Made by a program: the position numbers and the translations under genes
From: Herpetosiphon gulosus
GTDB taxonomy: Bacteria > Chloroflexota > Chloroflexia > Chloroflexales > Herpetosiphonaceae
Direction of reading: 5' to 3'
Assembly (NCBI RefSeq): GCF_039545135.1
Contig: NZ_BAABRU010000004.1
Location: forward strand, 322,427 to 386,426
DNA: 64,000 nucleotides
Part shown: one piece after another, positions 6,683-60,330 of the stretch
Layout: each line of letters opens with the position of its first letter
Numbering within the stretch: position 1 is the first letter of the stretch
The notes under the pieces: generated by a model
Told to the model about the DNA's origin: nothing
What the model saw: only the letters and a program-made list of their open reading frames with translations
Databases searched by the model: none

Positions 6683-6850
6683 AGTTTTTGATCCACGAAG
6701 CGCACGAAGCACACGAAGCACACGAATGTTGATTTTAAGGTTCGAACACATTGGCTGGCAATTCAGGCAGTTAATGAGCCTCAGCTTCGTGTCCTTCGTG
6801 GATCAAAAAACTTCCTCTCCCCTAATCCCTGACCCCTGAACCCTCGGAAA
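6683..6850. repeat. Palindromic intergenic repeat: module A (gatccacgaag-[cacgaag]n ... cttcgtg-cttcgtggatc), then module C (ccctgacccctga)
   Basis: The inverted heptamer arrays at 6690-6726 and 6785-6804 form a long hairpin. Module A recurs at 35132, 37831/38029, 41328 and 60109. Confidence 0.8.
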
Positions 6851-6859
6851 ACATTAATA

Positions 6860-6902
6860 TTGACAACTCTTTCAGCGATGTGCTATGCTTGAAACGGTTC
6901 AA
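6860..6902 (+). promoter_or_regulatory. Sigma70-like promoter (TTGACA-18-TATGCT) with an overlapping 14-bp near-palindrome TTGAAACGGTTCAA (candidate LacI-family operator) upstream of the sugar-binding protein gene
   Basis: -35 at 6860-6865, -10 at 6884-6889, palindrome at 6889-6902 (one mismatch pair, CG centre). Sits about 220 nt upstream of the SBP start. Confidence 0.4.
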
Positions 6903-7121
6903 TAAAGCGATTGCTTATACTTGGTTTTGGGCTAGATTTTGGTGAATTTGCGCTAAAAAGCAGCCAATAGCATTGTAAAGCCAGCCTAATCAATCAATTA
7001 TTGAATATTCTGATAGGGGTTATTGAATCGGTTCAAACCCAGCTCCGGTGCAGCATCAGGAATGGTTATGGCAGACACGACTTGATGCCCGTGGCTTGGA
7101 AAGCCCACTATCAGAAGGACA

Positions 7122-8657
7122 ATGCAGTCTATGAAACTTCGATCATTTCGCGTGTTGTTTGTGCTCAACCTGCTGATCGCGTTGATCTTGACGGCTTGTG
7201 GTGAAGCAACCCCTACAACCAACCCAACCGACGCGCCTGCTGCCGCAGCAACCACCGCCGCCGAAATCGTAGCAACCGCAACTACCGCAGATAGCCAACC
7301 AACCACTGCTCCTGCTGCGAACACTGCCAGCTTACCCGCAGTGATCACCATGCCTGAGCAAATTGCTGGCGGTCGGCCAGTTGAAATCACCGTCGTTGGC
7401 ATGCCACCCGAATCGCAGCCAACCACCTTGGCAACCTGGAAAGAGCAAGTCGCTCGCTTCCAACAGGTTTATCCCAATGTAACGATCATTGGCAGCGATT
7501 ATGCCTATGCCCCCGATACCTTCGCTGCGTTGGTGGCTGGTAACCAAGTACCAACCCTGTTTGAAGTCTATTTGACCGATGTAACCAAAGTTGTTGAGCA
7601 AGAAATTGCCACTGATTTGACCAGCGTGTTCAGCGCTAGCAAACTCGATGGCTTGTTCAATCCCAATATTTTGGCAATCGCCTCAAAAGATGGCAAAATC
7701 TATGGGATTCCCCGCTTTGCCTATGCGATGGGCTTGGGCTATAACATCGACATGCTCAAAGCTGCTGGCTTCGATACTCCTCCAACCAGTTGGCAAGAAT
7801 TGGCCACTATGGCCAAAACCTTGACCAATCGCGATACCAACGTAGCTGGTTTCTCGTTTATCACCGATGGCGGTAATGCCACTGGCTGGCAAGTAACCAC
7901 CATGGCCTATACCTTCGGCGCAAAACAAGCCGATTTAGTCAAAACTAATAGCGATGGCACCTATAGCGCAGGTTTTGCAACTGGCGCTCCAGTCGATACC
8001 CTAAACTACATCAAAGAATTGCGCTGGAACTACGATGTGTTGCCACGCGAAAACCTCGACTGGGCACGCAATGGCGAAGCCTTGGCAACCGACCGCGCCG
8101 CCTTGGTGGTGATGGCGGGCGACCAATTTAATTGGATACGCACCACCTTCCCCGATGTTGATCTGAAGAAATTTGGCTTTGCGCCATTGCCAGTTGGCCC
8201 AAATGCCAAGAGCGTTTCGTTGGTTGGTGGCAATATCGCCATGGTCAATGCGACCGCCGATGACGATCAAAAAGAAGCTGCGGCCTACTTCCGCCTCTGG
8301 ACCCAATTCGACCCCGCCGAAATTCAAATTGGCTACGATTTGAGCGCCAAAGATCCGCAATATGTGATCGGCGCACCAGTTTTGCCGTTGTACGTTGGCG
8401 ATTATCAAACGGCGCTCGATACGCTGCAAGCCAAATATGCCAACCTACCCGTTGAAAACTACCAACTCTTCCGCGATGCTGTGACCTCAGGCAAGGTTGC
8501 TTTGGAGCTTGAGCCAGCGATTGCCGGCCAAGAATACTATGGCGCAATGGGCGCGGTTGTCAGCAGCATTCTGACTGACCAAGCCATTGATCCAGCCGCT
8601 AATGTGACCGAGGCTGCAACCGTCTTCCAACATAATGTACTTGACCAACTGAAATAA
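7122..8657 (+). CDS. ABC transporter substrate-binding lipoprotein (family 1 sugar/oligosaccharide SBP)
   Basis: Lipoprotein signal ...LILTAC-G, followed by a Thr/Ala-rich linker. 511 aa. Two permease genes follow. Confidence 0.8.
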   Translation: MQSMKLRSFRVLFVLNLLIALILTACGEATPTTNPTDAPAAAATTAAEIVATATTADSQPTTAPAANTASLPAVITMPEQIAGGRPVEITVVGMPPESQPTTLATWKEQVARFQQVYPNVTIIGSDYAYAPDTFAALVAGNQVPTLFEVYLTDVTKVVEQEIATDLTSVFSASKLDGLFNPNILAIASKDGKIYGIPRFAYAMGLGYNIDMLKAAGFDTPPTSWQELATMAKTLTNRDTNVAGFSFITDGGNATGWQVTTMAYTFGAKQADLVKTNSDGTYSAGFATGAPVDTLNYIKELRWNYDVLPRENLDWARNGEALATDRAALVVMAGDQFNWIRTTFPDVDLKKFGFAPLPVGPNAKSVSLVGGNIAMVNATADDDQKEAAAYFRLWTQFDPAEIQIGYDLSAKDPQYVIGAPVLPLYVGDYQTALDTLQAKYANLPVENYQLFRDAVTSGKVALELEPAIAGQEYYGAMGAVVSSILTDQAIDPAANVTEAATVFQHNVLDQLK

Positions 8658-8727
8658 TCAGCTGCCACGCCTTGCTCTCAGTCAATTGGGAGCAAGGCGT
8701 GGTTGCAGCATCGTGAAGGAGTTTTCA

Positions 8728-9660
8728 ATGAAGGTTGCTCAATCGAAGCTGATTGCAGCCACAAGCACTGAGCGGCTGCGGCCACGGATTCAGTGGCGCA
8801 ATCAATTCTATGCTTATCTGTTTCTCTTGCCAGCCCTACTGATTTTTCTCTATTTCACTTGGTATCCGATGGTTACGGCGGTAATATATAGTTTCCAAAA
8901 AGTTAAGCTCAACGGCAATTCAACCTGGGTTGGCTTTGATAATTACCAGCGGATGTTTAATAACCCGCTGTTTTATACTGCTTGGCGCAATGTGTTTCAC
9001 TTTACAATTTTGAGTTTGTTGATGGGCTTTGTGGTGCCAATTATTATCGCCCTGATGATCAACGAATTACGCCGTTTGGGTGGTTTGTATAGTGTGGTGG
9101 CCTATCTACCAACCTTGATTCCAGCGACAATTGGCTTGTTGGTTTGGCGGCAGTTGTACGCGCCTGAAGGTGGTTTTCTAAATAATATTTTGGCAAAATT
9201 TGGGATCGCGCCGCAACTTTGGCTGCAAAACCCCGATTTGGTCAAGCCTGCCATGATTGTGATTATGACTTGGGCTGGGGTTGGCGGCACAATCTTAATC
9301 TACCTCGCGGCCTTGCGTGAAATTCCCCAAGAACTGTACGAAGCGGCCCAGCTCGATGGCTTTTCGGTGCTTGATCGGATTATTTACATCGCCCTGCCTT
9401 TGATTTCCTCGCGCATGCTGATGTTGCTGATGTTGCAAGTAATTGCGGTGGTACAAGTTTTCTCCGAGCCATTTTTATTAACCGAAGGCGGCCCAGCCAA
9501 TAGCACGGTTACGCCTGTGCTTGAAAGCTACCGCATCGCCTTTGCTCGCAACGATTTTGGCCTCGCCTCGGCTTGGAGCGTTTCGCTGTTGGTCGTGCTT
9601 TCGCTGTTTTCGGTGGTGTATGTTTGGCTCTCGATGCGCCAACCAAAGCATGCCGATTAA
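8728..9660 (+). CDS. Sugar ABC transporter permease (MalF/UgpA-like)
   Basis: EAA loop motif EAAQLDGFSVLDRIIYIALP; 6 TM. RBS GAAGGAG 8 nt upstream of the ATG at 8728. Confidence 0.8.
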   Translation: MKVAQSKLIAATSTERLRPRIQWRNQFYAYLFLLPALLIFLYFTWYPMVTAVIYSFQKVKLNGNSTWVGFDNYQRMFNNPLFYTAWRNVFHFTILSLLMGFVVPIIIALMINELRRLGGLYSVVAYLPTLIPATIGLLVWRQLYAPEGGFLNNILAKFGIAPQLWLQNPDLVKPAMIVIMTWAGVGGTILIYLAALREIPQELYEAAQLDGFSVLDRIIYIALPLISSRMLMLLMLQVIAVVQVFSEPFLLTEGGPANSTVTPVLESYRIAFARNDFGLASAWSVSLLVVLSLFSVVYVWLSMRQPKHAD

Positions 9661-9687
9661 TCAACCCTAGCCAACAAGGAGCAACCG

Positions 9688-10563
9688 ATGAGTTCAAGCA
9701 TGGGCATTATGTCCGAGGTCGAGTCGCGATCACGGCGTGGCACAATTTTGCGGGTTGTTTTAGGGATTATGCTGGCACTATTTAGCTGTGGCTTGCTCTT
9801 CCCATTTATTTTCACCTTCACGGCTGGACTCAAAACCAGCAGCGAAATTTATCAACCAGGCCTGAATTTGTGGCCTGAAGTCGCTCACTGGGAGAATTAT
9901 CGCGAGGCATGGACTCGTTTCAATCTGCCACGCATGTTTCTCAACACCTTTGCCATTACCCTAGGCGGGGTGGTTAGTCAACTGACGGTCTGTTCGATGG
10001 CGGCCTATAGCCTTTCGCGGCTCAAGCCAATTGGCCAAAAAGTGATTATGACAATGTTGTTTGTGAGTATGGCAATTCCAGCGATTGCCTATATCATTCC
10101 GTTATACACCACTTTGGTCAAATTGCCGTTGCTCAATATTAGTTTGCTGAACAGCTATTGGGGTTTGTGGCTACCCTATGCCGCCAATGCCTTCACAATC
10201 ATCGTGCTCAAGAACTTCTTCGAGCAAATTCCCCAAGATATTTATGATGCAGCGATGGTTGATGGAGCTTCGCCAATTCGGATTTTTTGGAGCATTACCT
10301 TGCCATTGGCACGGCCAATTCTGCTGACCTTAGCAGTTTTGACCTTTATTAGTCTCTGGAAAGATTTCTTGTTACCATTGTTGGTATTACGCGATGCCAA
10401 ATTGCAACCAGTGACGGTACGCCTGTTCGCCTTGGTCAAGGATTTTCCCAAGAACTTGCAAATGGCGGCCTCGTTCACCGCGATGGTTCCACAGTTGATC
10501 GCGGCGCTGTTACTGCAACGCTTTATCAAAGGCGGCTTGACAATTGGTGGGAGCAAAGGCTAG
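9688..10563 (+). CDS. Sugar ABC transporter permease (MalG/UgpE-like)
   Basis: EAA loop DAAMVDGASPIRIFWSITLP; 6 TM. Confidence 0.8.
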   Translation: MSSSMGIMSEVESRSRRGTILRVVLGIMLALFSCGLLFPFIFTFTAGLKTSSEIYQPGLNLWPEVAHWENYREAWTRFNLPRMFLNTFAITLGGVVSQLTVCSMAAYSLSRLKPIGQKVIMTMLFVSMAIPAIAYIIPLYTTLVKLPLLNISLLNSYWGLWLPYAANAFTIIVLKNFFEQIPQDIYDAAMVDGASPIRIFWSITLPLARPILLTLAVLTFISLWKDFLLPLLVLRDAKLQPVTVRLFALVKDFPKNLQMAASFTAMVPQLIAALLLQRFIKGGLTIGGSKG

Positions 10564-10578
10564 TGCTAGAAAGCGTTT

Positions 10579-11727
10579 ATGTCGAATCTTAAACAACTTG
10601 CCGAACTTACCGAACTGCCGATGTTGACGGTCTATCAGGCGCTTGATGGAGTTTCACACATCACGCCAGCAGTCCGTGAACAGGTGTCTGCCGCTGCCGC
10701 CAAGCTTAACTATAGCCTCAACATTACAATTCGCGATGTTGCGGCGCTGGCTGGGGTTTCAATTGGCACGGTTTCGCATGTGCTCAATGGCAGCACCCGC
10801 ACCAAATCAACCACCCGCCAACGGGTCTTGCAAGCAATCACCGAGTTGAATTATCGCCCCAACAGCATTGCGCGTGGCTTGAAATCCAACCATACGCGCT
10901 TGATTGGCTATGGTTGGCATAAAACCGAAGATCCCAGCCGCCCCAATGCCCTGCTTGATCGCTTTTTATATGAGATGGCACAGGCTGCCGAGGCTTGGGG
11001 CTATCATATTTTGACCTTTGCCCAGCCGCACCCTGCCAGCACCAAGCCCTATGCTGAACTGATGCAAATTGGGCGGATCGATGGCTTGGTGCTAAGCGAT
11101 ATTAGCTACAACGATCCACGAATTAACTATCTGCTCAAAACCGACTTGCCATTTGTAAGCTTTGGCCGCGCCAACAGCGATTGGAATTTCCCTGCGGTTG
11201 ATGTTGATAGCAAGCTGGGCATGAAATTGGCGGTTGAGCACTTGATTGCCCGGGGCCATGAGCAAATTGGCTTATTGTGCTGGCCCGAAGGCATGCGCAT
11301 CGGCGATGAGCGCTTGCAGGGCTATTATGCAGCTTTCGAGGCAGCAGGATTAAGCATTGATCAACGCAGCATTCGGCATATTCCCAATGCAGTTGATGCA
11401 GCATTTGCGGCGACCCAAGAACTGCTCAATCAACAGCCACGGATTACGGCGCTAGCTTGTGCCAACGATGTGATGGCCTTTGGAGCCAAACGCTACCTCG
11501 ATTTGGCAGGCTTACAAGTCGGGGTGGATTTAGCCTTGACTGGCTATGATGATTCACCGATTGCCGAATTGCTAGAACTGACCTCGGTACGTCAGCCAAT
11601 TGATATGGTCGCGGCCAAAGTGATCGAGCTATTAATTGGCGAGATTGAAGCTACACCAATTGCCCGCCAACAGATTGTGCTTGAGCCAACCCTAATTGTG
11701 CGAGCCAGCAGCCGCAAACAGCGTTAA
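10579..11727 (+). CDS. LacI-family transcriptional regulator (N-terminal HTH appears partially duplicated)
   Basis: HTH_LacI signature NITIRDVAALAGVSIGTVSHVLNG...LNYRPN, followed by a periplasmic-binding-protein-like sugar-binding domain. A second HTH-like segment LTVYQALDGVSHITPAVREQVSAAAAKLNY lies upstream of it. Confidence 0.8.
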   Translation: MSNLKQLAELTELPMLTVYQALDGVSHITPAVREQVSAAAAKLNYSLNITIRDVAALAGVSIGTVSHVLNGSTRTKSTTRQRVLQAITELNYRPNSIARGLKSNHTRLIGYGWHKTEDPSRPNALLDRFLYEMAQAAEAWGYHILTFAQPHPASTKPYAELMQIGRIDGLVLSDISYNDPRINYLLKTDLPFVSFGRANSDWNFPAVDVDSKLGMKLAVEHLIARGHEQIGLLCWPEGMRIGDERLQGYYAAFEAAGLSIDQRSIRHIPNAVDAAFAATQELLNQQPRITALACANDVMAFGAKRYLDLAGLQVGVDLALTGYDDSPIAELLELTSVRQPIDMVAAKVIELLIGEIEATPIARQQIVLEPTLIVRASSRKQR

Positions 11728-11781
11728 ACGCCAACCCCGCGCCAAATAGCACGGGGTTGGTACATTGAGAAAAGACCAAAG

Positions 11782-13026: not shown

Positions 13027-13253
13027 CGATACTCCTGTCAATCCCGGGACGATTTACATCGTGAGTGTATCGGCGCGAGTATAGCATAGGCCGTACTATG
13101 CAGCAACAATACAATCGGCTGTTAGCTAAAATTTGGCTTATTTTTGTTATTGTATTGATCATCTGGGTGAATGTCTATAGGCAGAAAGCCCAAAATGCCC
13201 TGTGCTATAATTGCGCAATTAAAAGATCCGCATGAAAGGTATTGGTTTTTCCT

Positions 13254-14210: not shown

Positions 14211-14301
14211 TTTTAGCATCAAGCCGCTCAGTTCCAAAGCATCCTGACAACGCGCCTTTGGGTCTTGGCGGCTTGCCGTTTTTAGCATAAAGGATGCCTG
14301 C

Positions 14302-15207: not shown

Positions 15208-15287
15208 CTCAATCAATTTCGTGCCTCATGATATACTGTCAACAGATTGACCTTGCAAGCCCTCACACATAGGACATAAAAAATACA

Positions 15288-17090: not shown

Positions 17091-17097
17091 GGTACAT

Positions 17098-17370
17098 GCC
17101 CTCACCCCCTAGCCCCCTCTCCCACACGTGAGGCGAGGGGGAACCACTCAGCATGAAGACTGGAACGACCCTCGCCCACCTCAGTGGGAGAGGGTCGGGG
17201 GTGAGGGAACGTTAAAACCCACCCTTGAAAGCTAACCCCCTCTCCCGCCCAGCATGAAGACTGGAATGCCCCTCGCCCGCCGCAGTGGGAGAGGGGTCGG
17301 GGGTGAGGGAACGCAGGCAATCCTTGCAACACCAAACGCCCCTCACCGACTATGGTAGGTGAAGGGCATT
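17098..17370. repeat. Module B GC-rich palindromic repeat, two tandem units (ccctcaccccc..ctctccc..gcgaggggg / cccctcgcc..gggagag..gggtgaggg)
   Basis: Each unit is a long hairpin. Similar copies occur at 26733-26963, 32732-32834 and 41401-41512. This one lies between convergent lepA and the beta-helix gene. Confidence 0.85.
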
Positions 17371-17374
17371 ACTT

Positions 17375-26726: not shown

Positions 26727-26732
26727 TTTTTG

Positions 26733-26963
26733 CCCTCACCCCTCACCTCAACCTTTCAAAGGATAGCTGACGTTCCCTCACCCCTAACCCCTCGCCCACT
26801 GCGGTGGGCGAGGGGCGTTCACCGTTCATGATGGGAGGGTTCCCCCTCGCCTCGCTGGGCGGGAGAGGGGGTGAGGGGGTGAGGGCATGCCAATCGATGG
26901 GAAATCCCACCCAATTATTGGTAAGAATCGGCTCTTATAAGGTCTAGGGGGCGAGGGCATGCC
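26733..26963. repeat. Module B GC-rich palindromic repeat (ccctcacccc..cccctcgccc..gggcgagggg..gggtgaggg)
   Basis: Same family as 17098, 32732 and 41401. Confidence 0.8.
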
Positions 26964-28350: not shown

Positions 28351-28402
28351 TTGACACAATTCAGTTTACAGTGTAAATTCATTTATAGATTTACAGTGTA
28401 AA
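28351..28402 (+). promoter_or_regulatory. TetR-gene promoter (TTGACA -35 at 28351) with two copies of the 13-bp palindrome TTTACAGTGTAAA (28365-28377, 28390-28402) - candidate autoregulatory TetR operators
   Basis: Two near-perfect dyad copies spaced 25 bp centre to centre, overlapping the -10/TSS region immediately upstream of the TetR start. Confidence 0.6.
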
Positions 28403-28419
28403 TCTATTGAGGTTTTGAA

Positions 28420-41645: not shown

Positions 41646-43292
41646 CTATTCAGGGTTGAGTTGCGGGCGAATGAAGGGATTGCTGAAGGTAGCGCCCCAA
41701 ATGCTGCTGAGCGATTGGCCTTCGACCGTAATCTGCACCTGTTGCACGCTGTTGAACGAGGTTAATGCCAATACCAAGGCATCAACCGCCGCGCGAGGAT
41801 TGCTAGTTTGGCTGAATTCAGCGCTAAGATCAAGCTGGACAACCCCATCGACAATCACTAAACGCCGCACTTGGCTGGTACTAGGGATGGCACTACTGAC
41901 AACATGGCTATAGCGGCCAGCTCCGCGAATAAGCTCATCGACAGTGGCCCGCGCCTCGGTTTTGGTGCTTGGCACAAGCCGCATCACTCGCACCCAACGA
42001 CCAGAACTTTGCTGAAAATATAACGGCAAGAACGAAGTTGTGTTAAACTGACCATTTAAACCCTGCGGATTATCGGGGTTGACATTAGGGCGATAGCGCA
42101 GGCCACCCAAATTCTGGCCTTGGACTTGAATTTGCACCTGAGTAATCTCTGGTTGCTCAGTCAAGGCCAACACAATCGAACGCAAGCCCAAGTCTTCTAG
42201 GCTTGAATTGCCAAACGTCGGGATACGGTTAAAATTAGCGGTAGCAATGCCATTATTCAAGCGTAGCCCAAGTAATTGGGTATCGCTGGGCAACAAACTA
42301 CGTAAATCGCTGCGTGCACCTTGAATTAACTGTTGGATTGCAGCAGTCCGTGGCTGACGAGTTGCGGCAATCTGGCGCGAGACTGGCACCAAAACTTGGC
42401 CAGTGCTATCGGCAAAAAACAATGTTAATTGATTAACCTCGCGACCACCAGTTTCCTCGGTTGGCTGAGCAGTTGGCTCAGGGATTGGTTCAGGCGTTGG
42501 TTCTACAGTTGGCTCAACTGTCGGTTCTACAGTTGGCTCAAGCGTTGGTTCTACAGTTGGCTCAATGGTCGGTTCCACGGTTGGTTCAAGCGTTGGCACG
42601 GCAGTTGTCGCAATTGGCGATAACGTTGGCTCCAAGCTGGGAAGATCGGTGGCAAACGGAATGCTAGGAGTAGCAGAGGCGACAATCACATCTTCAGTTG
42701 GCGGTACAATAACAAAGGTTGGCGATGCAAGAATCACCTGAGTGGTTGCAGAAGCCGATGGCGTAGCAGAGACCGAGGGAGTGACGGTAGTGGTTTGAGC
42801 AATAACTTCGGCTGTTTGAGTTTGACGAACCGCTGCTGTGGCAAAGGCATTTGGTGATGGTGAAACCGTTAATGTTGGGCTATCAGATGTTGGCTGAAGC
42901 ACTTGCGAGGTAGCGCTAGGAACGGCTGGAGTATCGGGGTTGCTAAATAAAACAACGCCGCTAATCGCATAGGCCACAATAATTAAGCCAAGTAGGCCCA
43001 CCAAGGTGGCATAAATTCGGCGATCGCGAGTTGATAAACCAGCGAGCCAGCCACGCCAACCACCCACCGCAACTGGCGTAGGCGTGCTGACAACCTGCGC
43101 AACGGGCAGATCTTCACCTGCATATAATGGGCAACGCACATGGTTGCTGCTTAGACAAAACGAGGCTTGGGGCACTGGGATGTCGTGAGCCTCACCCGTC
43201 ATGTAGCAGCGGTGCTCCGGCGTAGGACTCGCGAAACGAATCGCACGATTTTGTTTAAGGCCCACATATGGGCAGTGATGCACTGGTTCCAC
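41646..43292 (-). CDS. Membrane-anchored tandem GerMN-domain protein with Cys-rich cytoplasmic N-terminus and (EPTV)n tandem-repeat linker
   Basis: TM helix IYATLVGLLGLIIVAYAISGVVLF. Linker PTLEPTVEPTIEPTVEPTLEPTVEPTVEPTVEPTPEPIPEPT, encoded by ~12-bp tandem DNA repeats at 42470-42600. Two C-terminal GerMN-like modules. Confidence 0.6.
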   Translation of the reverse strand: MEPVHHCPYVGLKQNRAIRFASPTPEHRCYMTGEAHDIPVPQASFCLSSNHVRCPLYAGEDLPVAQVVSTPTPVAVGGWRGWLAGLSTRDRRIYATLVGLLGLIIVAYAISGVVLFSNPDTPAVPSATSQVLQPTSDSPTLTVSPSPNAFATAAVRQTQTAEVIAQTTTVTPSVSATPSASATTQVILASPTFVIVPPTEDVIVASATPSIPFATDLPSLEPTLSPIATTAVPTLEPTVEPTIEPTVEPTLEPTVEPTVEPTVEPTPEPIPEPTAQPTEETGGREVNQLTLFFADSTGQVLVPVSRQIAATRQPRTAAIQQLIQGARSDLRSLLPSDTQLLGLRLNNGIATANFNRIPTFGNSSLEDLGLRSIVLALTEQPEITQVQIQVQGQNLGGLRYRPNVNPDNPQGLNGQFNTTSFLPLYFQQSSGRWVRVMRLVPSTKTEARATVDELIRGAGRYSHVVSSAIPSTSQVRRLVIVDGVVQLDLSAEFSQTSNPRAAVDALVLALTSFNSVQQVQITVEGQSLSSIWGATFSNPFIRPQLNPE

Positions 43293-45648: not shown

Positions 45649-46659
45649 TTATTTGGTTGGCTGTTCGTCTGAATCTGTTAGGGCTTCAGTTTGATCAGCG
45701 TCATCATTATCATCATTATCATCAGCCTGATCGTCGTCATCGAATTCGTCATCAATCTGATCGTCGTCATCGAACTCAACATCAGCCTGATCGTCGTCAA
45801 ATTCTTCATCGTCGTCAGCATCAGTTCCGCCCAAACCTAGCGATTGCTTGGTCATCAGCAAGGCGGCACGGCCACGTAGCATCAAATCGTCAAACTTCGA
45901 TGGCTCTTTTTCCTCGCGTGGCAACACTGAGATAAAATGATTGAAGAGATAGCTATTTTCACGCACAAACTGATTCAGATCAGCCTCGGGATTGCGCAGT
46001 TGCCAATCTTCTAGACTGACAGCCAAAAATTCACTTAATTTCTCCACCGTGTCGGGAGTGGTTTGAGCCGCTGCGCCAGCAATGTAGTATTCTTCGCCAA
46101 CTGGCACAAGATGGGCAAAAATCAGCTCATTTTCTTCCAAGCGCTTGGCGGCAGCATGATCGCGCAAAGTAAAGGTTTCTTTGGTCAAAACCTCTTGAAT
46201 CAACGCACCTTTGCCCTTGATAATTTCAGTAATCAGATAGGGGCGCAAGCGAATGCCAGCCCAGGTTGGCAACAAATTCAGCTCATGCTCATCAAGCTCT
46301 AGCTCGGCTGGTGGATTAGCGGCGATCCGTTCGACCAAGGTTGAGCCATCATCGCCACTTTGAGCATCGAAGGCCAGCCAAGTCAAAAAGCGCTCTGAGC
46401 CACGATCTTCTAGCTCATCAAGTTCGCTCATATCGGCGGCGGTATAGCGTCCGCCCCAATATTGCTCAAACAAGCTAGGCGTGCTCGGAGCTAATTCTTC
46501 GCTTTGGGTGGCCTCGATCAATTTAGGAAACAACCGATCTTGAGCACGGCGTAATAAGCGCAACTGGTCTTCCTGCGCACGGTCAGCTGCTTCATGACAT
46601 TGCTTATATTTTTTGCCACTGCCACAAGGGCATGGGTCGTTGCGGCCTACTTTTGCCAT
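45649..46659 (-). CDS. SEC-C motif (YchJ/UPF0225-like) protein with poly-acidic repetitive C-terminal tail
   Basis: N-terminus [22 protein letters not shown] is a SEC-C metal-binding motif. C-terminus [39 protein letters not shown], encoded by ~30-bp tandem DNA repeats at 45690-45810. Confidence 0.7.
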
Positions 46660-46674
46660 AGAACTACTCCTAGA

Positions 46675-48348: not shown

Positions 48349-48391
48349 GAGCCAATCCTCAATCCATCTAAGCTAGGGCTGCCCAATTATA

Positions 48392-50254: not shown

Positions 50255-50375
50255 ACCATTATCCTTATCGCAATTTTGCTATCAGGATAGCACAGAACCT
50301 TGGTAGACATGGCATATATTGCCATCTATAATCGCAGTATCCTCCGTTAGCCAGTTTATTGAAGGAGCGAAGCCC

Positions 50376-51269: not shown

Positions 51270-51384
51270 GCCAATTTGAAACCTTTTGGCCAACGCTCCG
51301 TCTTTACGGCGGAGTGTTGGCGTTTTAGCCAGCAAATTGCGGTACGATGATAGTGAGCGATTTTTGATCAACGGAGGCTGCTGT

Positions 51385-53567: not shown

Positions 53568-55426
53568 GCTTGATACATTGCCTCGCTCGCTCCCTCACGC
53601 AGTTGTTGATCGGCCTGTTGAATTGTACTAGCTGTGCCAATCAAGGTTAGTTGATCGGCTGCTTGCAATTGGGTTTGGCCATCGGGCACAAATAAATTGC
53701 CCGCTCGCCGAATTGCCACAATCAAGACATTACTTGGCAAATTAAGCTGTTTCAACGGCTTGCCAACCACTCGCGGATTCGATACTTCAACTTCGTAAAT
53801 GCTTTGATCGGCTTGATGGCTTAAGAGCATGCTCATGGCTGATGGGCCTTGAACTAACTGGGTCAGGGCATCAACCGACGCTTGCAAGGGATTTAAAACT
53901 GTGATACCAAGATCGCGCAAAACACTGCTGGTACTCTCATTTTCAGCCCGAGCCACAATTGTTGCGACCTTGAAATGCGAACGCACCACCTGGCTCACCA
54001 ACAGATTGAGTTTATCACTCGGGGTCAAGGCTACAACCGCTTTGGCCCGTTCAACGCCAGCTTTACGCAACACTTGCAGATCAGTCGCATCGCCAGTAAT
54101 TGTGCTAATGCCATGGTGGCGCACCCGATCGATCAACTGTTGATCAGTATCGATCACTACCACATCGTGATGTTGGCTATGCAGTTGGCGGGCAAACAGC
54201 TGGCCTAAATCATTCGCGCCAATAACTAAGGTGGTCATCGGTTCAACTCCTAACAAACGTGCAAACAGCGGGGTAGTGAAGCTTTGCAGCACAACCGTGC
54301 CAATCACGGTCATAAACACCAAGCCAATCAATAAATTGCCCCCAGCAAATCCAGCTTCGTCCAATGAGATCGCTGCAAAGGTGGCAACCGAAGCGGCCAC
54401 AACTCCGCGTGGGCAAACTGCGGCAATAAAGGCCCGTTCGCGCCAGGTTAAGGTTGAACCAAGCGTTGAGGCAAAGACACACAATGGCCGCACCACCACA
54501 ATCATCAACACAACCGCTAATACGCCCCACCAACCAAGCGCGGCCAAATCGGCAAATTTCAAACGAGCTGCTAGCAAAATAAAAATAATCGTAATTGCCA
54601 GCATGGTTAGGTCGCCCTTGAACAAGACAACTTCTTCTTCGTGGGGAAAATCGATATTGCCAACCGCAATCCCTGAAACTGCTGCTGCCGCAATGCCAGC
54701 TTCATGCGAAATCGCTTCAGCAATGATAAAGATTGCGATTGCGCCACCCAACGCGCTCAAACGAGTGGTTTCAGCATTGAGCTTCGAGCCGATAAAGCGC
54801 AGCGCATAGGCTAAGCCAATGCCGCCAACCAAACCAATCAACGAGCCAATCAGCAAGCGTTCGGCCCAATCGAAGGCTCCGCTAATGGTTGTGCCGCTGG
54901 TGAGCAAGACATCGAGCACAACCACCGCCAAAATAGCCCCAACCGCATCAACCAATACGCCTTCAGCTTGCAACAACACTTTTAAGCGTTCTTTGGCATT
55001 GCTGCGCCGCATCAAAGGCGTAATCACGGTTGGCCCAGTGACGCTCATCAATGCCCCAAACAAGGTTGCCAGTGGCCATGATAAGCCCGCCACAAAATGC
55101 GCTACCAAGGTTGCACTACCCCATGTCACTAAGGCTCCAACACTCATCAACATTTGCAATGGGTACGATAAACGGCGCAAATCGTTGATATCGAGCACCA
55201 AACCACCCTCAAATACAATAATCGCCACAAACAACGGAATCAACACCCGCAGCCCAACGCCTAAGGCCGATGGATCAACCAAGCCAAAAACTTCGGGGCC
55301 AACGATCACTCCCACCAACAGCAACAAGACAATCGACGGGATGCCAATCCGTTCAGCAAGCACGAAGGTGGCGATGCCAAAACAAATCACCATCCCCGCC
55401 ATCAACAGCAAACTATGTGCATCCAT
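53564..55426 (-). CDS. Cation/proton antiporter (CPA family) fused to C-terminal TrkA-N/TrkA-C (RCK) regulatory domains
   Basis: About 11 TM helices, then [16 protein letters not shown] (Rossmann) and the TrkA-C-like ...ADQLTLIGT. Overlaps the downstream gene by 4 nt. Confidence 0.75.
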
Positions 55427-55533
55427 ATAACTCCTTTCTGTGCGCCTTGCCAGATTGACACAAACCTAAGCTATGTTATGCTATTATTGTTAGGTTTGTC
55501 GTTTAACTTAGTTAACAAAAGGACTCAAACCAT

Positions 55534-56461
55534 GGCGCGGATTTATGACAACATTACCCAACTTATCGGCAACACGCCGCTGGTGCGCTTGGGCAAGGTT
55601 AATACCACGGGGGCGACGGTATTAGCCAAGCTTGAGTTTTTCAACCCAGCCAGCAGCGTCAAAGATCGGATTGGCTTGGCGATGATCGAGGCAGCGGAGG
55701 CCGCCGGTCTGATCAATCCAAACGATACCACGATTATCGAGCCAACCAGTGGCAATACGGGAATTGGTTTAGCATTTGTGGCCGCCGCCAAAGGCTACCG
55801 TATTGTGCTAACCATGCCAGAAACCATGAGCTTGGAACGGCGCAAATTGCTCAAAGGCTTTGGAGCTGAATTAGTTTTGACTCCAGGCTCCGAGGGCATG
55901 CCCGGGGCAATTCGTCGCGCCGAAGAATTGGCCGCCGAAAATCCAGGTAGCTTTATTCCGCAACAATTCAAAAATAAAGCCAACCCAGCAGTTCACCAAC
56001 GCACCACCGCCGAAGAAATTTGGAATGATACCGATGGCGCTGTCGATATTTTGGTGGCTGGGGTTGGCACTGGTGGCACCATCACAGGGGTTGCCTCGGT
56101 GCTGAAAGAACGCAAACCAGGCTTTAAGGCAATTGCGGTCGAGCCAACTGCCTCGCCAGTGCTTTCTGGTGGCAAAATGGGGCCGCACAAAATCCAAGGC
56201 ATCGGCGCTGGCTTTGTGCCCGATGTGCTCGATACCAGCGTGATCGATGAAATTATTCAAGTTACCAATGAAAATGCTTTTGAATGGGCCCGCAAATTGG
56301 CTCACGAAGAAGGCTTGATGGTCGGGATTAGCTCAGGGGCCGCCGCGTGGGCCGCCTTGCAAGTAGCTGCCCGCCCCGAAAATGCTGGTAAAACGATTGT
56401 CTTTATTGTGCCAAGCAACGGCGAACGCTACCTCAGCACACCATTATTTGATGCTGAGTAG
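55534..56461 (+). CDS. cysK: Cysteine synthase A (O-acetylserine sulfhydrylase, PLP-dependent)
   Basis: [23 protein letters not shown] lysine motif ...[11 protein letters not shown], glycine loop [10 protein letters not shown]. Confidence 0.9.
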
Positions 56462-56595
56462 GATTTAGGGGTCAGGGGCTAGTTGCCAGGGTCCAGAAAA
56501 GCTAGAAGTAATTTTAACGCAGAGGCGCAGAGTCTTGATAAGGATGAAGGCGGTTTCAACCTGATTCCTAGCCCTGACAACTGATCCCTAAAAAT
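56461..56595. repeat. Composite repeat (module C ggggtcaggggctag..., module E ttttaacgcagaggcgcagag, then inverted C-like cctgattcctagccctgacaactgatccc)
   Basis: Same modules as the 37800-38100 element. Confidence 0.75.
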
Positions 56596-56598
56596 CTA

Positions 56599-56640
56599 AC
56601 ACCCTCAGCACCGAACCATGCTGAGGGTGTCGAATTTTTA
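56599..56640. terminator. Bidirectional rho-independent terminator (caccctcagca-ccgaaccatg-ctgagggtg) flanked by T-runs on both strands
   Basis: Perfect 10-bp stem. tcgaattttta follows on the + strand, and a T-rich RC (tagattttta) lies on the - strand 3' of the 56654 gene. Confidence 0.65.
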
Positions 56641-56653
56641 GCAATTCGTGAAA

Positions 56654-56883
56654 CTAGGCGGCTGGAGGAGGAGCTTCGTCGCCGTCGATGCCTAATTTAT
56701 CTTTGGCGGCTTCATACACATCGCTGGCTTTATCGCCGACGACTTCGGCAACATCACTAATTTTTTCGGCAGCTTGCTCGGCTAAATCGCCTGCTTTTTC
56801 AGCGGCATCGCCGATAAATTCACCAACCGACTCGGCGACATCCTTGGCTTTATCAACCAAATTTTCGAAAAACCCTGGTTCAT
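56654..56883 (-). CDS. Small acidic protein built of ~11-residue amphipathic repeats (LEA/CsbD-like?)
   Basis: MTDNEPGFFENLVDKAKDVAESVGEFIGDAAEKAGDLAEQAAEKISDVAEVVGDKASDVYEAAKDKLG. RBS GGAGGA 6 nt upstream of the ATG. Confidence 0.55.
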
Positions 56884-56998
56884 TATCAGTCATGGGGTTT
56901 CCTCCGAAATGCCACGTGGTATCTACCACGATCTCTTGCTTAGCTCTATTGTAGTAGATTCAGGCCAACTTACAAGTAGCAATTTGGTTCCATTCTGC

Positions 56999-58234
56999 TC
57001 AGATCGAGCCAGCCTTGGCCTGCTGTTCGCCCAATGTCGGTTGGTTTGGCACACGCGGCAAGCTCAATGAGATCATGGCTGTGATTGCACTCAGCAAGGC
57101 CGCTGCCCATAAACAGCCTGCCAACCCATAGCTTTGATAGAGCAGGCCTGAAAGAATTGTGCCAAGCAAGCGACCCAAGGCATTGGCCATATAGTAGAAA
57201 CCTACATTCAAAGCCACATCATCCTGATCGGTATAGGCTAAAATGAGGTAGGAGTGCACCGCCGAATTCAGCGCAAAGATAAACCCAAAGCCAATTAAGC
57301 CCACCACAACCACGACTGCCGATTGTTGGTTGATTTGCACAACGCTGGCAATCGCCGCCATAATCAGCATCAACAAGCCAGCCAAAATTGTTGCCGCCCA
57401 ACCGTTGGGCGTGGTTTGCCAGCGGCGGGTTATCTGTGGCGCGAGCGCTTGAATCAGGCCATAGCCAATTACCCACAAGGCCAAATAGCCGCCAGCCTGC
57501 CAAAACGACCAACCAAGCACTTCACTGAGAAAAACTGGCAAGCCGACCACAAACCAAACATCTCGCGCTGCAAACAAAAAACAACGCGCTGCTGAAAGCA
57601 GATTGATCGCGCGGCTTTTGGCAAAGAGTTGCTGCCACTTTGGCTTGGCTTTGCTACGCCCCAAATCGTGTTGCAAAAAGATCCAAGTGCCGATTGCTGC
57701 CATAGCAATCAAACTCGCAAGCACGGCGAAGGCACTGCGAAAGCCAATGGTGCTCAATAATAGGCTACCCAAGAAAAAGCCCACGCCTTTGAGCGCATTT
57801 TTCGAGCCAGTCAAAATGGCTACCCATTTGAACAAGGTCGATTGAGCATCTTCAGCCACCAACATTTTGATACTGCTCTTGGCGCTCATTTTGGTCAGAT
57901 CTTTGGCGATGCCCGAGCCAGCTTGCGCCAACATCACATAAGGCACGCTGAGCCAAGCACTGGGCACAACCATCATGCCCAAGGCGACAACTTGTAACAC
58001 CAAGCCAGCATGCAACGTGCGATTCAGGCCAAAACGTGTGCCCAGCCAGCCACCAAATAAATTGGTAACCACCCCAAATACTTCATAGAAAATAAAGAGC
58101 GCCGCTACCGCCAAGGCACCATAGCCAAGTTGATGAAAATGAAACAAAACCAACATACGCAACGCACCATCGGTCAAAGTAAATGCCCAATAGGCGGCGG
58201 TAACAATCGCATATTCTTTGAATTGTTGCTGCAT
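56999..58234 (-). CDS. arsJ: MFS transporter, ArsJ-like (organoarsenical/1-arseno-3-phosphoglycerate efflux permease) by context
   Basis: 12-TM MFS, 411 aa, immediately downstream of and co-directional with GAPDH and the ArsR-ArsC gene. This matches the known gapdh-arsJ pairing. Confidence 0.6.
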   Translation of the reverse strand: MQQQFKEYAIVTAAYWAFTLTDGALRMLVLFHFHQLGYGALAVAALFIFYEVFGVVTNLFGGWLGTRFGLNRTLHAGLVLQVVALGMMVVPSAWLSVPYVMLAQAGSGIAKDLTKMSAKSSIKMLVAEDAQSTLFKWVAILTGSKNALKGVGFFLGSLLLSTIGFRSAFAVLASLIAMAAIGTWIFLQHDLGRSKAKPKWQQLFAKSRAINLLSAARCFLFAARDVWFVVGLPVFLSEVLGWSFWQAGGYLALWVIGYGLIQALAPQITRRWQTTPNGWAATILAGLLMLIMAAIASVVQINQQSAVVVVVGLIGFGFIFALNSAVHSYLILAYTDQDDVALNVGFYYMANALGRLLGTILSGLLYQSYGLAGCLWAAALLSAITAMISLSLPRVPNQPTLGEQQAKAGSI

Positions 58235-58243
58235 GGTTGGCTC

Positions 58244-59257
58244 CTAGCCTGCCTGAAGTTGGGCGACCTTGGCGGCTAGCTCCAACATGCGATTAACATA
58301 GCCAATTTCGTTGTCGTACCAAGCCATAATTTTCAGTTGGGTTTGGTTGGTAACAGTCGTCAGCGCTGCATCAATAATCGCCGAACGTGGATCACCTTTG
58401 TAATCAACTGAAACTAAAGGCCGTTCTTCATAGCCCAAAATACCTTTGAGCGCTCCACGACTAGCCTCAGCCAAAGCCCGATTAACCTCTTCGCTCGTAG
58501 TTGGTCGGGCCAGTTCAAAGACACAATCGGTCAGCGAGGCATTCAACAAGGGCACGCGAATCGCTACCCCATCTAAACGACCTGCTAATTCTGGAAAGAT
58601 CATGCCAATTGCGCTGGCTGAGCCTGTGCTGGTGGGAATCAGCGATTGGCTAGCGGCGCGGGCACGGCGTAAATCTTTATGCGGCGCATCGATCAAATTT
58701 TGGGTATTAGTCATATCGTGAATTGTGGTGATCATGCCGTGTTTGATACCAAACTGTTCATGCACCACTTTGACGATGGGAGCTAAACAATTGGTTGTGC
58801 ACGAGGCGGCAGTTAATAAACGATGCTGTAGTGGATCATAGAGCTGATCATTGACTCCCATCACAATGTTGAGTGCGCCGTGCTTAACAGGTGCGGCAAC
58901 GATCACAGTTTTGACTCCAGCCGCAAAATAACCCGCTAGTTGTTCGGGGCTACGAAATTTGCCTGAACATTCCAGCACCAGATCAACGTCATGGCTCGCC
59001 CAATCGGTTGCTTCAATTGTCGCATGATTGCTATAACTCAGGCGTTGTTGATCGATGATCAGGGCTTGGGCTTCGGCCTGCACAGCTTGGTTCCAGCGGC
59101 CATGAACTGAATCGAAGGCCAGCAAATGCGCAGCAGTCGCAGCCTCGCCTTTAAGTTCGTTGATATGTACCCATTCAAATCCTGGGCGATTCCAGCCAGC
59201 CCGTAATGCTAGCCGCCCCATTCGCCCAAAACCATTAATGCCAATTCGTAAAGCCAT
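58244..59257 (-). CDS. gap: Type I glyceraldehyde-3-phosphate dehydrogenase (ars-operon-associated paralog)
   Basis: [14 protein letters not shown]-binding motif. Active-site [10 protein letters not shown]. 1-nt TAATG overlap with the upstream arsR-arsC stop. Confidence 0.85.
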
Positions 59258-60030
59258 TATTTGCTCCCTTCGCGTTGTTGGCGCTCAATGGTGGTCAGTA
59301 AAAAACGAATACGGGTCATCAGTTGCTGGGCGGTGGTTTCAATTGCAGCGGCTTGGGCTAGTTCGCTGGTTTCACGCAATGGGTCGGCAAAACTCCAGTG
59401 CATACTGGTGGGGTGGCCAGCAAGCGTTGGGCATTGTTCGCGTGCTCGATCGCAGACCGTAATCACATAGTCGAAATCTTGCTCAAGGTAGGGCTGGAGT
59501 GCCTTGGAATATAAGCCAGCGCTGGAAATCTTTTTTTCGGCCAAGGTTGCTAGAACCAAGTGATGCACCTCGGCAGGTTGGGTTCCGGCGCTCACTACAT
59601 CGAGCATGGAGCCGCCAATATGGCGGGTAATTGCCTCAGCTAGTTGCGAGCGAGCACTGTTGTGGGTGCACAAATATAAAATTCGCACTGGTTTGGTGAG
59701 TTGATAGGTTTGGCTAGTTGATTTACCAGCAAATGGATCAAGATCAGGGTGCAGGGCTTGAGCGCTAGCTTGATAGGCCGTTTGCAAGGTGGGCAAATCG
59801 AGATGGTAATAGACATCACGGCCATCGGCTTCGCTACGGCGTTCGATCACCAAGGCAGCTTCACGCAACAGCCGTAAATGATATGAAACCACATTCATCG
59901 GCGCTTGCAAGACCGCCACACATTCATGCACCCGATAATCGCTATGGACTAAAAGTTGTAACAAGCGCCAACGAAGATCATGCGCTAGCAATTTGAGCAC
60001 GGCAGGTGGTTCAAGCCCAAGGCTTTGCAT
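59257..60030 (-). CDS. arsR-arsC: ArsR-family HTH repressor fused to a LMW-PTP-type (thioredoxin-coupled) arsenate reductase ArsC domain
   Basis: Ars[52 protein letters not shown]-terminal domain [17 protein letters not shown] ... [13 protein letters not shown] conserves the three Cys of B. subtilis-type ArsC (CX5R P-loop plus C..C pair). Confidence 0.75.
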
Positions 60031-60108
60031 AATAATACTCCAAATCAAAATGATTCAAATTATTTTGAAGTATATTCGAGGTATTAGCAAAAAGCAAGCT
60101 AGCATTTT

Positions 60109-60330
60109 GATCCACGAAGCGCACGAAGTTATTTTAGCCACGAATTGCACAAATTATGCTTTTGTGATCCCCAATGTACTACAGCTCAGTGCTATGCGTA
60201 ATGTCTGACCCCTAGCCCCTGAATCCTGACCCCTGACCTCTATTTTGCCTTTTGCCTTTTGATTTTCATCCCTCATTATTCATCCTTCATCCTTTCCTAT
60301 GCTACTCTGTGGCATGCGAATTGCCGCAAC
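60109..60330. repeat. Composite repeat upstream of mscS: module A (gatccacgaagcgcacgaag), module C (tgacccctagcccctgaatcctgacccctgacc), module D (catccctcattattcatccttcatcc) with conserved tail tttcctatgctactctgtggcatg
   Basis: The tail matches the tail of the 35277-35336 element, which also sits immediately upstream of a + strand gene. Confidence 0.75.

Follow-up and report, generated by a model that had tools for sequence, protein, structure and literature searches.

Repeat loci between housekeeping genes

We analysed a 64,000-nt stretch of DNA from Herpetosiphon gulosus (contig NZ_BAABRU010000004.1, positions 322,427 to 386,426; hereafter the window), in which ten loci between genes are filled with short repeated modules. 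The genes themselves are of a housekeeping kind, encoding LepA, Tex, deoxyhypusine synthase, GAPDH, ClpS, ABC transporters and an acyl-CoA synthetase among others, and the loci were placed against a crude map of open reading frames (ORFs); no tRNA or tmRNA genes were found in the window. The Tex protein shares 99% identity with its counterpart in H. aurantiacus DSM 785 and 92% with the one in H. llansteffanensis; together with the DNA identities of the Tex gene given below, these values place the window in Herpetosiphon (Chloroflexi) at about species-level distance from the sequenced genomes. The ten loci sample a genus-wide population of non-coding repeats, whose blocks are not genes, Rfam RNAs or fragments of insertion sequences (ISs). 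Judged by their sequences, the blocks appear to be of two kinds, namely arrays of 7-10 nt words (modules A/E, C, D, F, G, H, I and J) and pairs of a GC-rich triple-block motif (module B).

The original prediction, made from the letters of the window, held that short modules recur between genes in changing combinations. They are indeed present at all ten loci, each of which lies in a gap of the ORF map between housekeeping genes, and no array of the window falls inside a gene. Together the loci amount to about 2.2 kb, or 3.5% of the window and roughly one third of its intergenic DNA, and they fill 10 of the 16 intergenic gaps of at least 100 nt. Measured against dinucleotide shuffles of the window, CACGAAG occurs 23 times (6.4 in shuffles), CCCTCACCCC 22 times with at most one mismatch (2.2), the 19-mer of module E four times with at most three mismatches (0.02), ATAGGCTAT 32 times with at most one mismatch (9.7) and CATCCTTCATCC 12 times with at most two (4.9). 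The literal 9-mer of module C is not above chance in the window (12 against 8.05, with 11 of 100 shuffles reaching 12). The 7-mers of that module are 15-70 times commoner in intergenic than in coding DNA, and for module 7-mers overall the enrichment of the intergenic (6 kb) over the coding (57.5 kb) fraction is 15-210 times; GGGAGAG, for example, has 11 intergenic and 0 coding occurrences. When the window was compared with itself by BLAST, the significant matches fell nearly all among the ten loci, with exceptions at 28385-28407 and 45720-45799.

Module vocabulary and the ten loci

At least six modules, A to F, had been proposed. These exist, but the vocabulary is both larger and differently divided, since at least ten word families can be counted and A and E merge into one. 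The merged family consists of CRCRRAG words separated by linkers of 1-3 nt, behind a T-rich TTAAC, TGATC or GAAAC head; its A arrays have a period of 9-10 nt (a 7-nt word plus a 2-3 nt linker), and module E is TTAAC(CGCAGAG-N)n. Arrays of cacgaag with gatcc ends had been described for module A; the arrays were confirmed, but a GATC head is found only sometimes, and at locus 8 the head is TTAAC. Heads are kept on CRCRRAG arrays that were picked from Herpetosiphon without a head criterion (TGATC on 18, GAAAC on 16 and TTAAC on 7 of 65), and in other phyla the head is T-rich and then AA, with TTTAA in 29 of 138 arrays. The D array likewise stands, but what had been called its conserved tail is a separate word array, G (CTATGYT). 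Further modules are H (AATCTGTG...GGCTAAAA), I (TTTTGCC or TTTTGAC) and J (CGATCCCC). The tandem arrays, also detected with Tandem Repeats Finder, exceed chance, are intergenic and differ in copy number among relatives, and the order of modules is not fixed. Below, a prime marks an inverted module, and x and x' are the stretches on either side of B in a composite.

Nested palindromes of up to about 300 bp had also been anticipated. They are seen in locus 7, at 301 nt, and in loci 1, 2, 3, 5 and 8, but loci 6 and 10 are linear and loci 4 and 9 only weakly structured. In a folding check against shuffles, loci 1, 2, 3, 5 and 8 reached z = -5 to -9.5 on at least one strand, and the minimum free energies (MFEs) of the two strands of the loci were similar. 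Hairpins with arms in inverted doublets occur at loci 1-5 and 7-9, with z down to -11.

Locus 7 (37800-38100), in a convergent gap, is a single nested hairpin of 301 nt (z -9.1 / -11.0). From the outside inwards its layers are C', GATC-(CACGAAG)3, C', E and F around the core CGGAACAATTGTTGCCATTTCAAGAAATC, beyond which follow F', E', (CTTCGCG)3-GATC and C. The left A arm holds CACGAAG three times and the right arm the complement of three CGCGAAG words, with unrelated linkers. Because the words are uniform within each arm, the arms are not mirror copies and the linkers are unrelated, each A array must have been homogenised internally. Simple inverted duplication as the origin of the A-hairpin arms was rejected on these grounds, the linkers not being mirrored. 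The same gap contains, separately from the hairpin, a canonical intrinsic terminator on the minus strand at 37028-37056 (a 13-bp stem with 8 GC pairs, then TTTGTTT), right after the stop codon of the acyl-CoA synthetase gene; in the relatives a 74-aa ORF is called in this gap. Locus 1 (6683-6850), in a divergent promoter gap, combines an A-type hairpin with a C array. Its order is TTTTTGATC(CACGAAG-NN)4, a 73-nt spacer and (CTTCGTG-NN)2GATCAAAAA, with arms at 6685-6710 and 6784-6809 that are 92% complementary, followed by CCCCTRA-type heptamers of module C at 6819-6844; its MFE is -59.6 against -36.5 in shuffles (z -6.1).

Four loci carry module B. Locus 2 (17094-17374), in the convergent gap between LepA and an ORF of unknown function, has two tandem B units (17099-17212 and 17235-17313), each with a three-block motif of the BoxC/TMECO type discussed below (17169-17207 and 17270-17309), as well as a partial hairpin at 17339-17370; z is -8.1 and -8.9 on its two strands. 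Locus 3 (26727-26963), in a gap of tandem genes, has a B hairpin at 26773-26885 with the motif at 26775-26814 on the minus strand and orphan half-sites at 26731-26749 and 26946-26959 (z -5.2 / -6.5). At locus 5 (32675-32900), a G remnant of ATAGAAC words (32675-32700), overlapping the stop of the upstream gene, precedes a composite F - x - B - x' - F' (32703-32881) with its motif at 32732-32771 on the minus strand (z -9.5). Locus 8 (41310-41645), between Tex and a Germane-domain gene, begins with an A array behind a TTAAC head (41317-41345) and continues with a second F - x - B - x' - F' composite (41355-41550; motif at 41473-41512), a second F hairpin (41541-41609) and a J array (41610-41640), with z -8.2.

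Locus 4 (31103-31240), between ClpS and an SPFH/vault-like gene, is a C-type hairpin (arms 31106-31128 and 31172-31194) followed by a D array of the TTCATCC type (31205-31233), with z of about -2. Locus 9 (56461-56595), in a convergent gap, has C' (56464-56482) and C (56570-56592) arms around an E array (56514-56532) and an inverted D word (56542-56553), with z -2.4 / -3.0. Locus 6 (35076-35336) is essentially a linear string whose folding is not significant (z about -1.6): degenerate E arms (35079-35098 and 35255-35276) enclose an A array (35132-35157) and an F hairpin (35186-35250), after which come a D array of five units (35276-35312) and a G-like tail, and directly downstream a conserved TATGGTATGATGG and the 5' untranslated region (UTR) of the acyl-CoA synthetase gene. 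The linear string of locus 10 (60100-60330), in a divergent gap, has an A array (60105-60128), a degenerate A array (60139-60154), C (60205-60238), I in the form TTTTGCC (60243-60261), D (60265-60294) and a G-like tail; no inverted repeats were found in it and z is +0.4. Its 24-nt exact match to locus 1 is the longest between loci in the window, and repeat copies are 72-95% identical to one another.

Several functional assignments were tried on these arrays and rejected. An integron attC site (RYYYAAC...GTTRRRY around E hairpins) does not fit, as the right ends vary (GTTAA, GTTGAA, GTTTTT, GGTGAA) and many E copies break the core-site rules. G-quadruplexes were rejected for module C, whose arrays in the window hold only 2-3 G-tracts against the four needed, and a promoter scan gave no support for the head as a -35 box or for G words as -10 boxes.

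Other repeats of the window stand apart from this vocabulary. The match at 28385-28407 is a lone 23-nt near-perfect palindrome in the gap before a TetR-family gene. Two tandem repeats lie within genes and are unrelated to the intergenic modules, one at 42485-42596 with a 24/48-nt period in the gene of a Germane/PT-repeat protein and one at 45718-45799 with a 30-nt period in that of a SEC-C motif protein. A GC-rich segment at 63189-63271 (gatcaccacccctccgccccgcctcaaggcggggaacgcagggtg...) is 92.9% identical to a non-syntenic H. geysericola site (L026 4417-4500) and may, on this likeness, represent a further dispersed repeat family.

Module B and the BoxC/PIT/TMECO motif

By the order of its sequence blocks, module B is a known element, the BoxC/PIT/TMECO intrastrand-triplex motif, present here in inverted pairs. 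The Escherichia coli motif consists of CCCTC(T/G)CCC, a loop of 3-6 nt, GGGNGAGGG, a loop of 3 nt and a second GGGNGAGGG; it forms an intrastrand triplex in vitro, as seen by circular dichroism (CD), nuclear magnetic resonance (NMR) and dimethyl sulfate (DMS) probing, and is always intergenic and occurs in inverted pairs (Holder et al. 2015, PMC4666352). According to the same authors, TMECO/BoxC loci are more rearranged than usual when E. coli strains are compared, the motif has no mobility genes nearby and no phage or plasmid association, its strict form is found in 262 proteobacterial genomes, and G/C-rich triplex motifs occur in cyanobacteria (PMC4666352). The literature on the motif also records that PIT elements are a block to DNA polymerase in vitro and that no transposase goes with them. 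Earlier work on BoxC/PIT, by Bachellier and by Maher as cited in that paper, preceded the triplex study, and earlier work is also the source for the statement that PIT/BoxC has no promoter or terminator activity in E. coli (PMC4666352).

We searched the window for a C-stem CCCTCNCCC, a loop, GGGNGAGGG, a loop and GGGNGAGGG, with the loops relaxed to 3-9 and 2-6 nt. This pattern has five matches, one per B hairpin, against 0 in 100 shuffles; every match is intergenic, the plus strand carrying three and the minus strand two, and the inverted partner is the other half of each hairpin. The blocks of B follow the published order, CCCTC(T/G)CCC, loop, GGGAGAGGG, loop, GGGTGAGGG, and by inspection the third block GGGGGTGAGGG could align antiparallel to GGGAGAGGGG with G.G, A.A and T.A triplets. 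As in 'palindromic TMECO', B is intergenic, on both strands and in inverted pairs, and it sits in loci that vary among close relatives without associated mobility genes. It differs in its loops (8 and 4-5 nt against the published 3-6 and 3) or in longer G/C runs, in its Chloroflexi host, in its embedding in an F - x - B - x' - F' composite of about 165-190 nt, and in the presence of its arm in at least 120 viral contigs.

At least 120 IMG/VR viral contigs contain that arm, GGGAGAGGGGNNGGGGGTGAGGG in its proper order, against 0 for a control with swapped loops and 32 for a register variant; the order of the arm therefore matters. Units resembling B with the same architecture also occur at 29 places of a Cupriavidus chromid and on Pseudanabaena plasmids. 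Among plasmid sequences, a BLAST query with locus 8 gave B-like matches in cyanobacterial and Cupriavidus replicons and no Herpetosiphon record, and a query with locus 7 gave no match; the B arm had no BLAST match in E. coli, for which the low-complexity filter and the short query are the probable cause. On the Pseudanabaena galeata plasmid NZ_CP112877.1 (159017-159928; L128:360-520), a full B-type inverted pair and two extra C-rich half-sites were observed, lying in frame within an annotated 4.7-kb coding sequence of a DNA methyltransferase and translating as ...PSPPSPLSQKGRGGTGTGEDLAPLSPLGRGAGGEG....

Turnover between close relatives

Turnover was inferred from four genomes over one collinear region of about 22 kb. 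The window was compared with H. aurantiacus-type contigs (L121), the assembly GCA_020161265.1 (L124) and H. llansteffanensis (L126), which were picked via Tex orthologues, independently of the repeats, and whose Tex genes are 93.4%, 93.7% and 86.4% identical in DNA to that of the window, respectively. Between these relatives the presence and absence of modules differ at orthologous sites, a comparison that the original prediction had put forward as a check. Gaps free of arrays keep their exact length against L124 or L121 and are 89-100% identical in nine of ten comparisons, the tenth being a 24-nt gap at 75%. The array loci 5 to 8, by contrast, share 47-67% identity with L124 and differ from it in length by 32-138 nt (locus 8 has 47% identical columns), and against L121 locus 7 is 55% and locus 8 79% identical. 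Every break in the BLAST alignment over the 22 kb lies inside an array locus.

Some of these differences concern the length of arrays, which grow and shrink in place in what looks like replication slippage. In the four genomes the D array that precedes the acyl-CoA synthetase gene numbers 5, about 21, 2 or 0 units, and it always adjoins the conserved TATGGTATGATGG and 5' UTR. In other cases, as the alignments indicate, modules are gained, lost or replaced at fixed positions between collinear conserved flanks. Beside the stop codon of deoxyhypusine synthase the window has C and the other genomes have G, and J is swapped against C at another fixed site. Presence or absence of B also differs at orthologous sites. 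Three genomes have the B composite of locus 8, where the fourth has unrelated sequence and a D array instead, and the composite of locus 5 is replaced in L124 by G, a C hairpin and A' arrays. In the nested hairpins the outer layers are common and the inner layers differ between genomes. Locus 6 is a synteny breakpoint (window 35067-35371, L121 15794-16085, L126 16282-16747), the genes upstream of that for acyl-CoA synthetase being DUF4938, ADH and Band_7 in the window and L124, as against an opposite-strand MFS transporter in L121 and L126.

Composites with unique cores are, on sequence comparison, conserved as families at non-orthologous loci. The core of locus 7 matches two copies at non-orthologous places of H. 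llansteffanensis, whose genome is about 86% identical, at 34 of 37 positions, but the orthologous site of L124, whose genome is about 94% identical, at only 28 of 38. All three copies of this core have the order A ... F - core - F' - E' in an element of about 170 nt. Similarly, the B composites of loci 5 and 8 agree at 84-88% of positions along 95-164 nt. These two families imply that multi-module units, and not just words, are copied between loci. Conserved interiors were seen in these two composites (about 170 nt for A-F-core-F'-E' and about 165 nt for B), most similarity extending over 20-50 nt of array only.

Spread across genomes and phyla

Enrichment beyond the window, which the original prediction required, was seen in 23 independent 8-kb loci (179 kb) from five Herpetosiphon genomes, the sampled DNA being about 5% of any Herpetosiphon genome. 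In these loci, which were chosen for carrying E, we counted 61 A arrays, 38 of D, 35 of F, 38 of G and 11 of H and 17-22 matches to the B motif, where shuffles gave at most 0.5. The same modules are carried by the three orthologous regions chosen by Tex. Modules D, F, G and I are essentially lineage-specific.

Module E reaches much further. At least 120 stretches of species-representative genomes contain its exact 19-mer, against an estimated chance expectation of about 4 (596 Gb, both strands). Among the matches listed there are more than 15 phyla, with five Herpetosiphon genomes; the hosts include Verrucomicrobia, Kiritimatiellia, Lentisphaerae, Planctomycetes, Chlamydiales, Acidobacteria, Gemmatimonadetes and Nitrospinia, several proteobacterial classes, Ignavibacteria, Armatimonadota, Poribacteria, other Chloroflexi and more. 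In these genomes the 19-mer is the start of longer CGCAGAG-type arrays, and across taxa 54 of 137 E copies have an inverted CTYYGYG partner array no more than 300 nt away. Likeness between phyla is limited to the arrays, the loops and interiors being unrelated.

On these sequence comparisons we would raise, as a speculative proposal that we think unlikely, that the CRCRRAG arrays (E and its relative A), each behind its conserved T-rich head, may form an undescribed pan-bacterial family, spanning more than 15 phyla with identical words around unrelated interiors, much as the BoxC/TMECO motif does, and needing either a conserved reader or transposase-independent copying. Were this so, the sequence-specific reader would be a word-binding protein or enzyme, itself horizontally mobile, or else the copying would be triggered by non-B DNA. 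In either case bacterial repeat DNA would have a new way of spreading, and Herpetosiphon, where about ten word families coexist and form nested composites, would offer a natural model for it.

Individual contigs show these arrays in further settings. A Lentisphaerales metagenome-assembled genome (MAG; CAYPJN010000227.1, L054:1263-2900) has a GT4-type glycosyltransferase ORF with three word-array insertions, of the CGCAACG type, the E type (TTTAACGCAGAGGCGCAGAGG) and the GGTGAGT type; the first holds one stop codon, and two are in frame, stop-free and translated as low-complexity linkers such as FNAEAQRRGG. In a Kiritimatiellia MAG (L069:1250-1730), a linear string of word arrays (GGTTTCN, GGGATCG, TTAAC-CACGGAA, TTAAC-GCAGAGG and CAGATTA, with T-runs between them) is duplicated in tandem with a unit of about 295 nt and resembles locus 10, in another phylum. 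In H. llansteffanensis (NZ_PUBZ01000164.1, L022:1584-2150), three head-to-tail units of 187 nt each consist of E, a unique segment and a B-type hairpin, so that whole composites can evidently amplify in tandem. Three stretches of one Chloroflexaceae MAG (L096, L108 and L113) have the same sequence of about 30 nt, tatagcaaccctccatgattkgtaccattt, before each E 19-mer, and to judge by this shared segment E is there part of a longer dispersed element.

Origin and propagation of the repeats

We read the ten loci, tentatively and with a confidence a little short of an even chance, as structure-prone, fast-turnover, self-propagating intergenic DNA that grows by slippage and is copied between loci, rather than as locus-specific regulators. 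Hairpin, triplex and slipped structures would stall replication, and repair by slippage, template switching or short-patch gene conversion, primed on shared words, would copy modules from other loci, often onto the opposite strand. Copies would land preferentially in the loops and at the ends of existing palindromes, possibly with the help of a trans-acting enzyme or a word-binding protein. Stalling combined with word-primed copying would thus lead to nesting, mosaics and local instability. Such a model agrees with the instability and the polymerase block on record for BoxC/TMECO and with the slippage model of heptamers. Effects on the host are probably secondary and would comprise intergenic rearrangement hot spots, stable stem-loops in transcripts and variable DNA upstream of some promoters.

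Several points weigh against this reading. Slippage and template switching alone do not explain identical words, namely the exact E 19-mer and the ordered B arm, across phyla and viral contigs, and this sharing suggests a sequence-specific reader or horizontal transfer. The unique 37-nt core common to two species could, as a conserved sequence, equally be a transposase recognition site or otherwise functional. Locus 4, alone among the array loci compared, is conserved (96% with a close relative, on par with coding DNA), so not every array locus is unstable. Since the Herpetosiphon loci used for counting were selected for E, co-occurrence near E is inflated. Finally, no event was caught in the act, the dynamics all being inferred from four genomes and one 22-kb region.

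In an alternative reading, the repeats are non-autonomous transposons of the REPIN, PATE or miniature inverted-repeat transposable element (MITE) kind, mobilised by a transposase encoded elsewhere, either of the Y1 HUH kind (IS200 or a transposase associated with repetitive extragenic palindromic (REP) sequences, RAYT) or undescribed. The word arrays with their TTAAC, GATC or GAAAC heads would then be terminal or subterminal binding and cleavage sites, and insertion would be into the single-stranded loops of existing hairpins. We consider this unlikely, though it accounts well for the MITE-like geometry of inverted array pairs around short interiors, for the conserved head on CRCRRAG arrays even where the head was not selected for, for composites with a unique conserved core at non-orthologous loci, and for arrays and B motifs in frame inside ORFs of other taxa, as insertions would be. 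The broad phyletic spread and the viral contigs fit horizontal transfer, and rare class 3 Y1 proteins with atypical hairpins are found in Planctomycetes and Acidobacteria. The original prediction, too, had seen a combinatorial system like REP sequences and bacterial interspersed mosaic elements (BIMEs) or like MITEs. The repeats are dispersed, combinatorial and hairpin-forming, and, as in BIMEs, few motif types alternate in orientation, but the units are not REPs, their order is unfixed, and neither the REP tag nor the target-site duplications of MITEs were found. For the tag we looked for a tetranucleotide GTAG or GTGG (or CGTC) 0-2 nt 5' of a hairpin; in the window the array heads are TGATC, GAAAC or TTAAC, the B hairpins start with CCCTCACCCC, and GTGG occurs only within B, at the junction of loop and 3' arm (CAGTGGGAGAGGG). 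Target-site duplications were absent at the B, A and E hairpins, where the flanks are unrelated or continue the palindrome: TTTTT...AAAAA at locus 1 is such a continuation, TTAA and GATC are themselves palindromic, and the B hairpins are flanked by acatg/aacgt, acgtt/catgc, gttat/aagac and tctat/aatgg. The modules, whose copies share only 20-170 nt, are not IS fragments, an outcome that would have counted against the original prediction; the 50 ORFs scanned in the window include no transposase, integrase or reverse transcriptase, and no autonomous IS was found. A tblastn search with an IS200 TnpA probe gave no match at E < 1 in 2.2 Mb with more than 250 array loci, a weak null, and divergent RAYTs could escape the probe. 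Also difficult for transposition are the short longest exact match between loci (24 nt) among copies 72-95% identical, the restriction of inter-phylum similarity to arrays and never interiors, and the lack of mobility genes near the published motif (PMC4666352).

Selection for a role in cis would be a different explanation again, in which 3' hairpins end or stabilise transcripts, arrays serve as protein-binding pads and promoter-side arrays tune expression. The position of some elements is suggestive of this: in Herpetosiphon B arms are absent from divergent gaps (0 of 13) and in the window they adjoin a gene 3' end at loci 2, 3, 5 and 8, their stems are very stable, and D and G arrays lie directly upstream of the -10-like TATGGTATGATGG, which four genomes have in conserved form. 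The words hold steady where the linkers differ, one locus and one core have been conserved, many words resemble Shine-Dalgarno or anti-Shine-Dalgarno sequences and are avoided in coding DNA, and binding pads have been hypothesised for TAACTGA repeats (MacGregor 2015). We nevertheless hold a regulatory origin to be quite improbable, because different modules substitute for one another or vanish at orthologous sites while the adjoining promoter or UTR is conserved, and A, E and G show no orientation bias relative to genes (the 'inside ORF' class of that analysis being unreliable, given crude ORF calls in GC-rich viral contigs). The suggestion that the hairpins may act as terminators found no support, as no array hairpin has a U-tract or was called as a terminator, terminator calls in total are at shuffle level, and the canonical terminator at 37028-37056 is separate. 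As to strand-specific selection on RNA, the folding energies showed no strand asymmetry, and sense-strand mismatches gave no clear preponderance of the G-U-compatible over the A-C kind (11 against 6), transversion mismatches dominating; Rfam 15 gave 0 matches at the gathering score, with only chance-level generic hairpins at E values up to 5; and PIT/BoxC lacks promoter and terminator activity in E. coli (PMC4666352). A low-complexity chance effect or an assembly artefact, finally, would agree with the chance-level count of the literal C 9-mer and with the triviality of some two-word 'arrays'. Its probability is close to nil, since all other modules far exceed shuffles, the B arm with swapped loops has 0 matches against at least 120 for the real arm, and, decisively, modules recur at orthologous and non-orthologous loci of independent isolates, including the finished H. 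aurantiacus DSM 785 chromosome.

The repeats have a practical use as a predictor of rearrangement hot spots and as strain-typing markers in Herpetosiphon, because they fill about one third of the intergenic space and mark exactly where close genomes differ. They also sharpen the question of how short repeats spread without a transposase close by and come to have identical words in different phyla and phages, and the E 19-mer and the ordered B arm provide two exact, searchable handles for the missing factor.

Relation to known repeat systems

Parts of this system are already known, since module B is a described element and there are precedents for heptamer arrays, mosaic intergenic repeats and the sharing of heptamers across phyla. 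We found no description in the literature searched of the Herpetosiphon vocabulary, of the nested combination of about ten families with BoxC-type motifs or of CRCRRAG/TTAAC arrays in more than 15 phyla, and an exact-sequence literature search returned only irrelevant eukaryotic primer matches.

Cyanobacterial STRR sequences are long simple-sequence repeats of the heptamer type, and pneumococcal BOX elements have a modular A-Bn-C build with a variable number of modules. The small dispersed repeats (SDR) of Nostoc, reportedly described by Elhai et al. in 2008, are said to be tiny units of mobile appearance that nest within intergenic DNA which forms hairpins and is rich in heptamers. From SDR and BOX the present repeats differ in sequence and host phylum. 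Rickettsia palindromic elements are palindromic repeats tolerated in frame inside protein genes, as are the E arrays in the Lentisphaerales glycosyltransferase and B in the Pseudanabaena methyltransferase; the difference is that the arrays of the window are never in genes and that the sequences are unrelated.

For tandem repeats, polymerase slippage has been put forward as the origin of heptanucleotide arrays (Mrazek 2007, as summarised in PMC4679880), and GGGNATC repeats are known from Xanthomonas and Nostoc (Rehm 2015, PMC4692102). Like these 5-11 nt repeats and the TAACTGA repeats, the Herpetosiphon arrays consist of tandem words of 7-10 nt, are strongly intergenic and vary in copy number, and one word is common to distant phyla with no known mechanism of transfer; modules C and J, being G-rich heptamers, are built like GGGNATC. 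They differ in that many word families coexist and are paired, inverted, into nested hairpins of up to 300 nt, in that the words are unlike those published, and in that the C arrays, with their 2-3 G-tracts, fall below the four needed for a quadruplex.

With REP, BIME and REPIN sequences the repeats have in common that they are intergenic, hairpin-forming, high in copy number and arranged as inverted doublets in mosaic clusters of alternating orientation, with nested or adjacent insertion and diversity between close relatives. They differ in that the Herpetosiphon loci are without the tag, that no RAYT was found in the sampled DNA with the IS200 TnpA probe, that the arms are tandem word arrays instead of a single palindrome of 20-40 bp, and that some words cross phyla, whereas REP families are lineage-specific. 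The ten loci thereby join three literatures in one combinatorial system, those on BoxC/TMECO triplex motifs, on heptamer tandem repeats and on REP/BIME-like mosaics.

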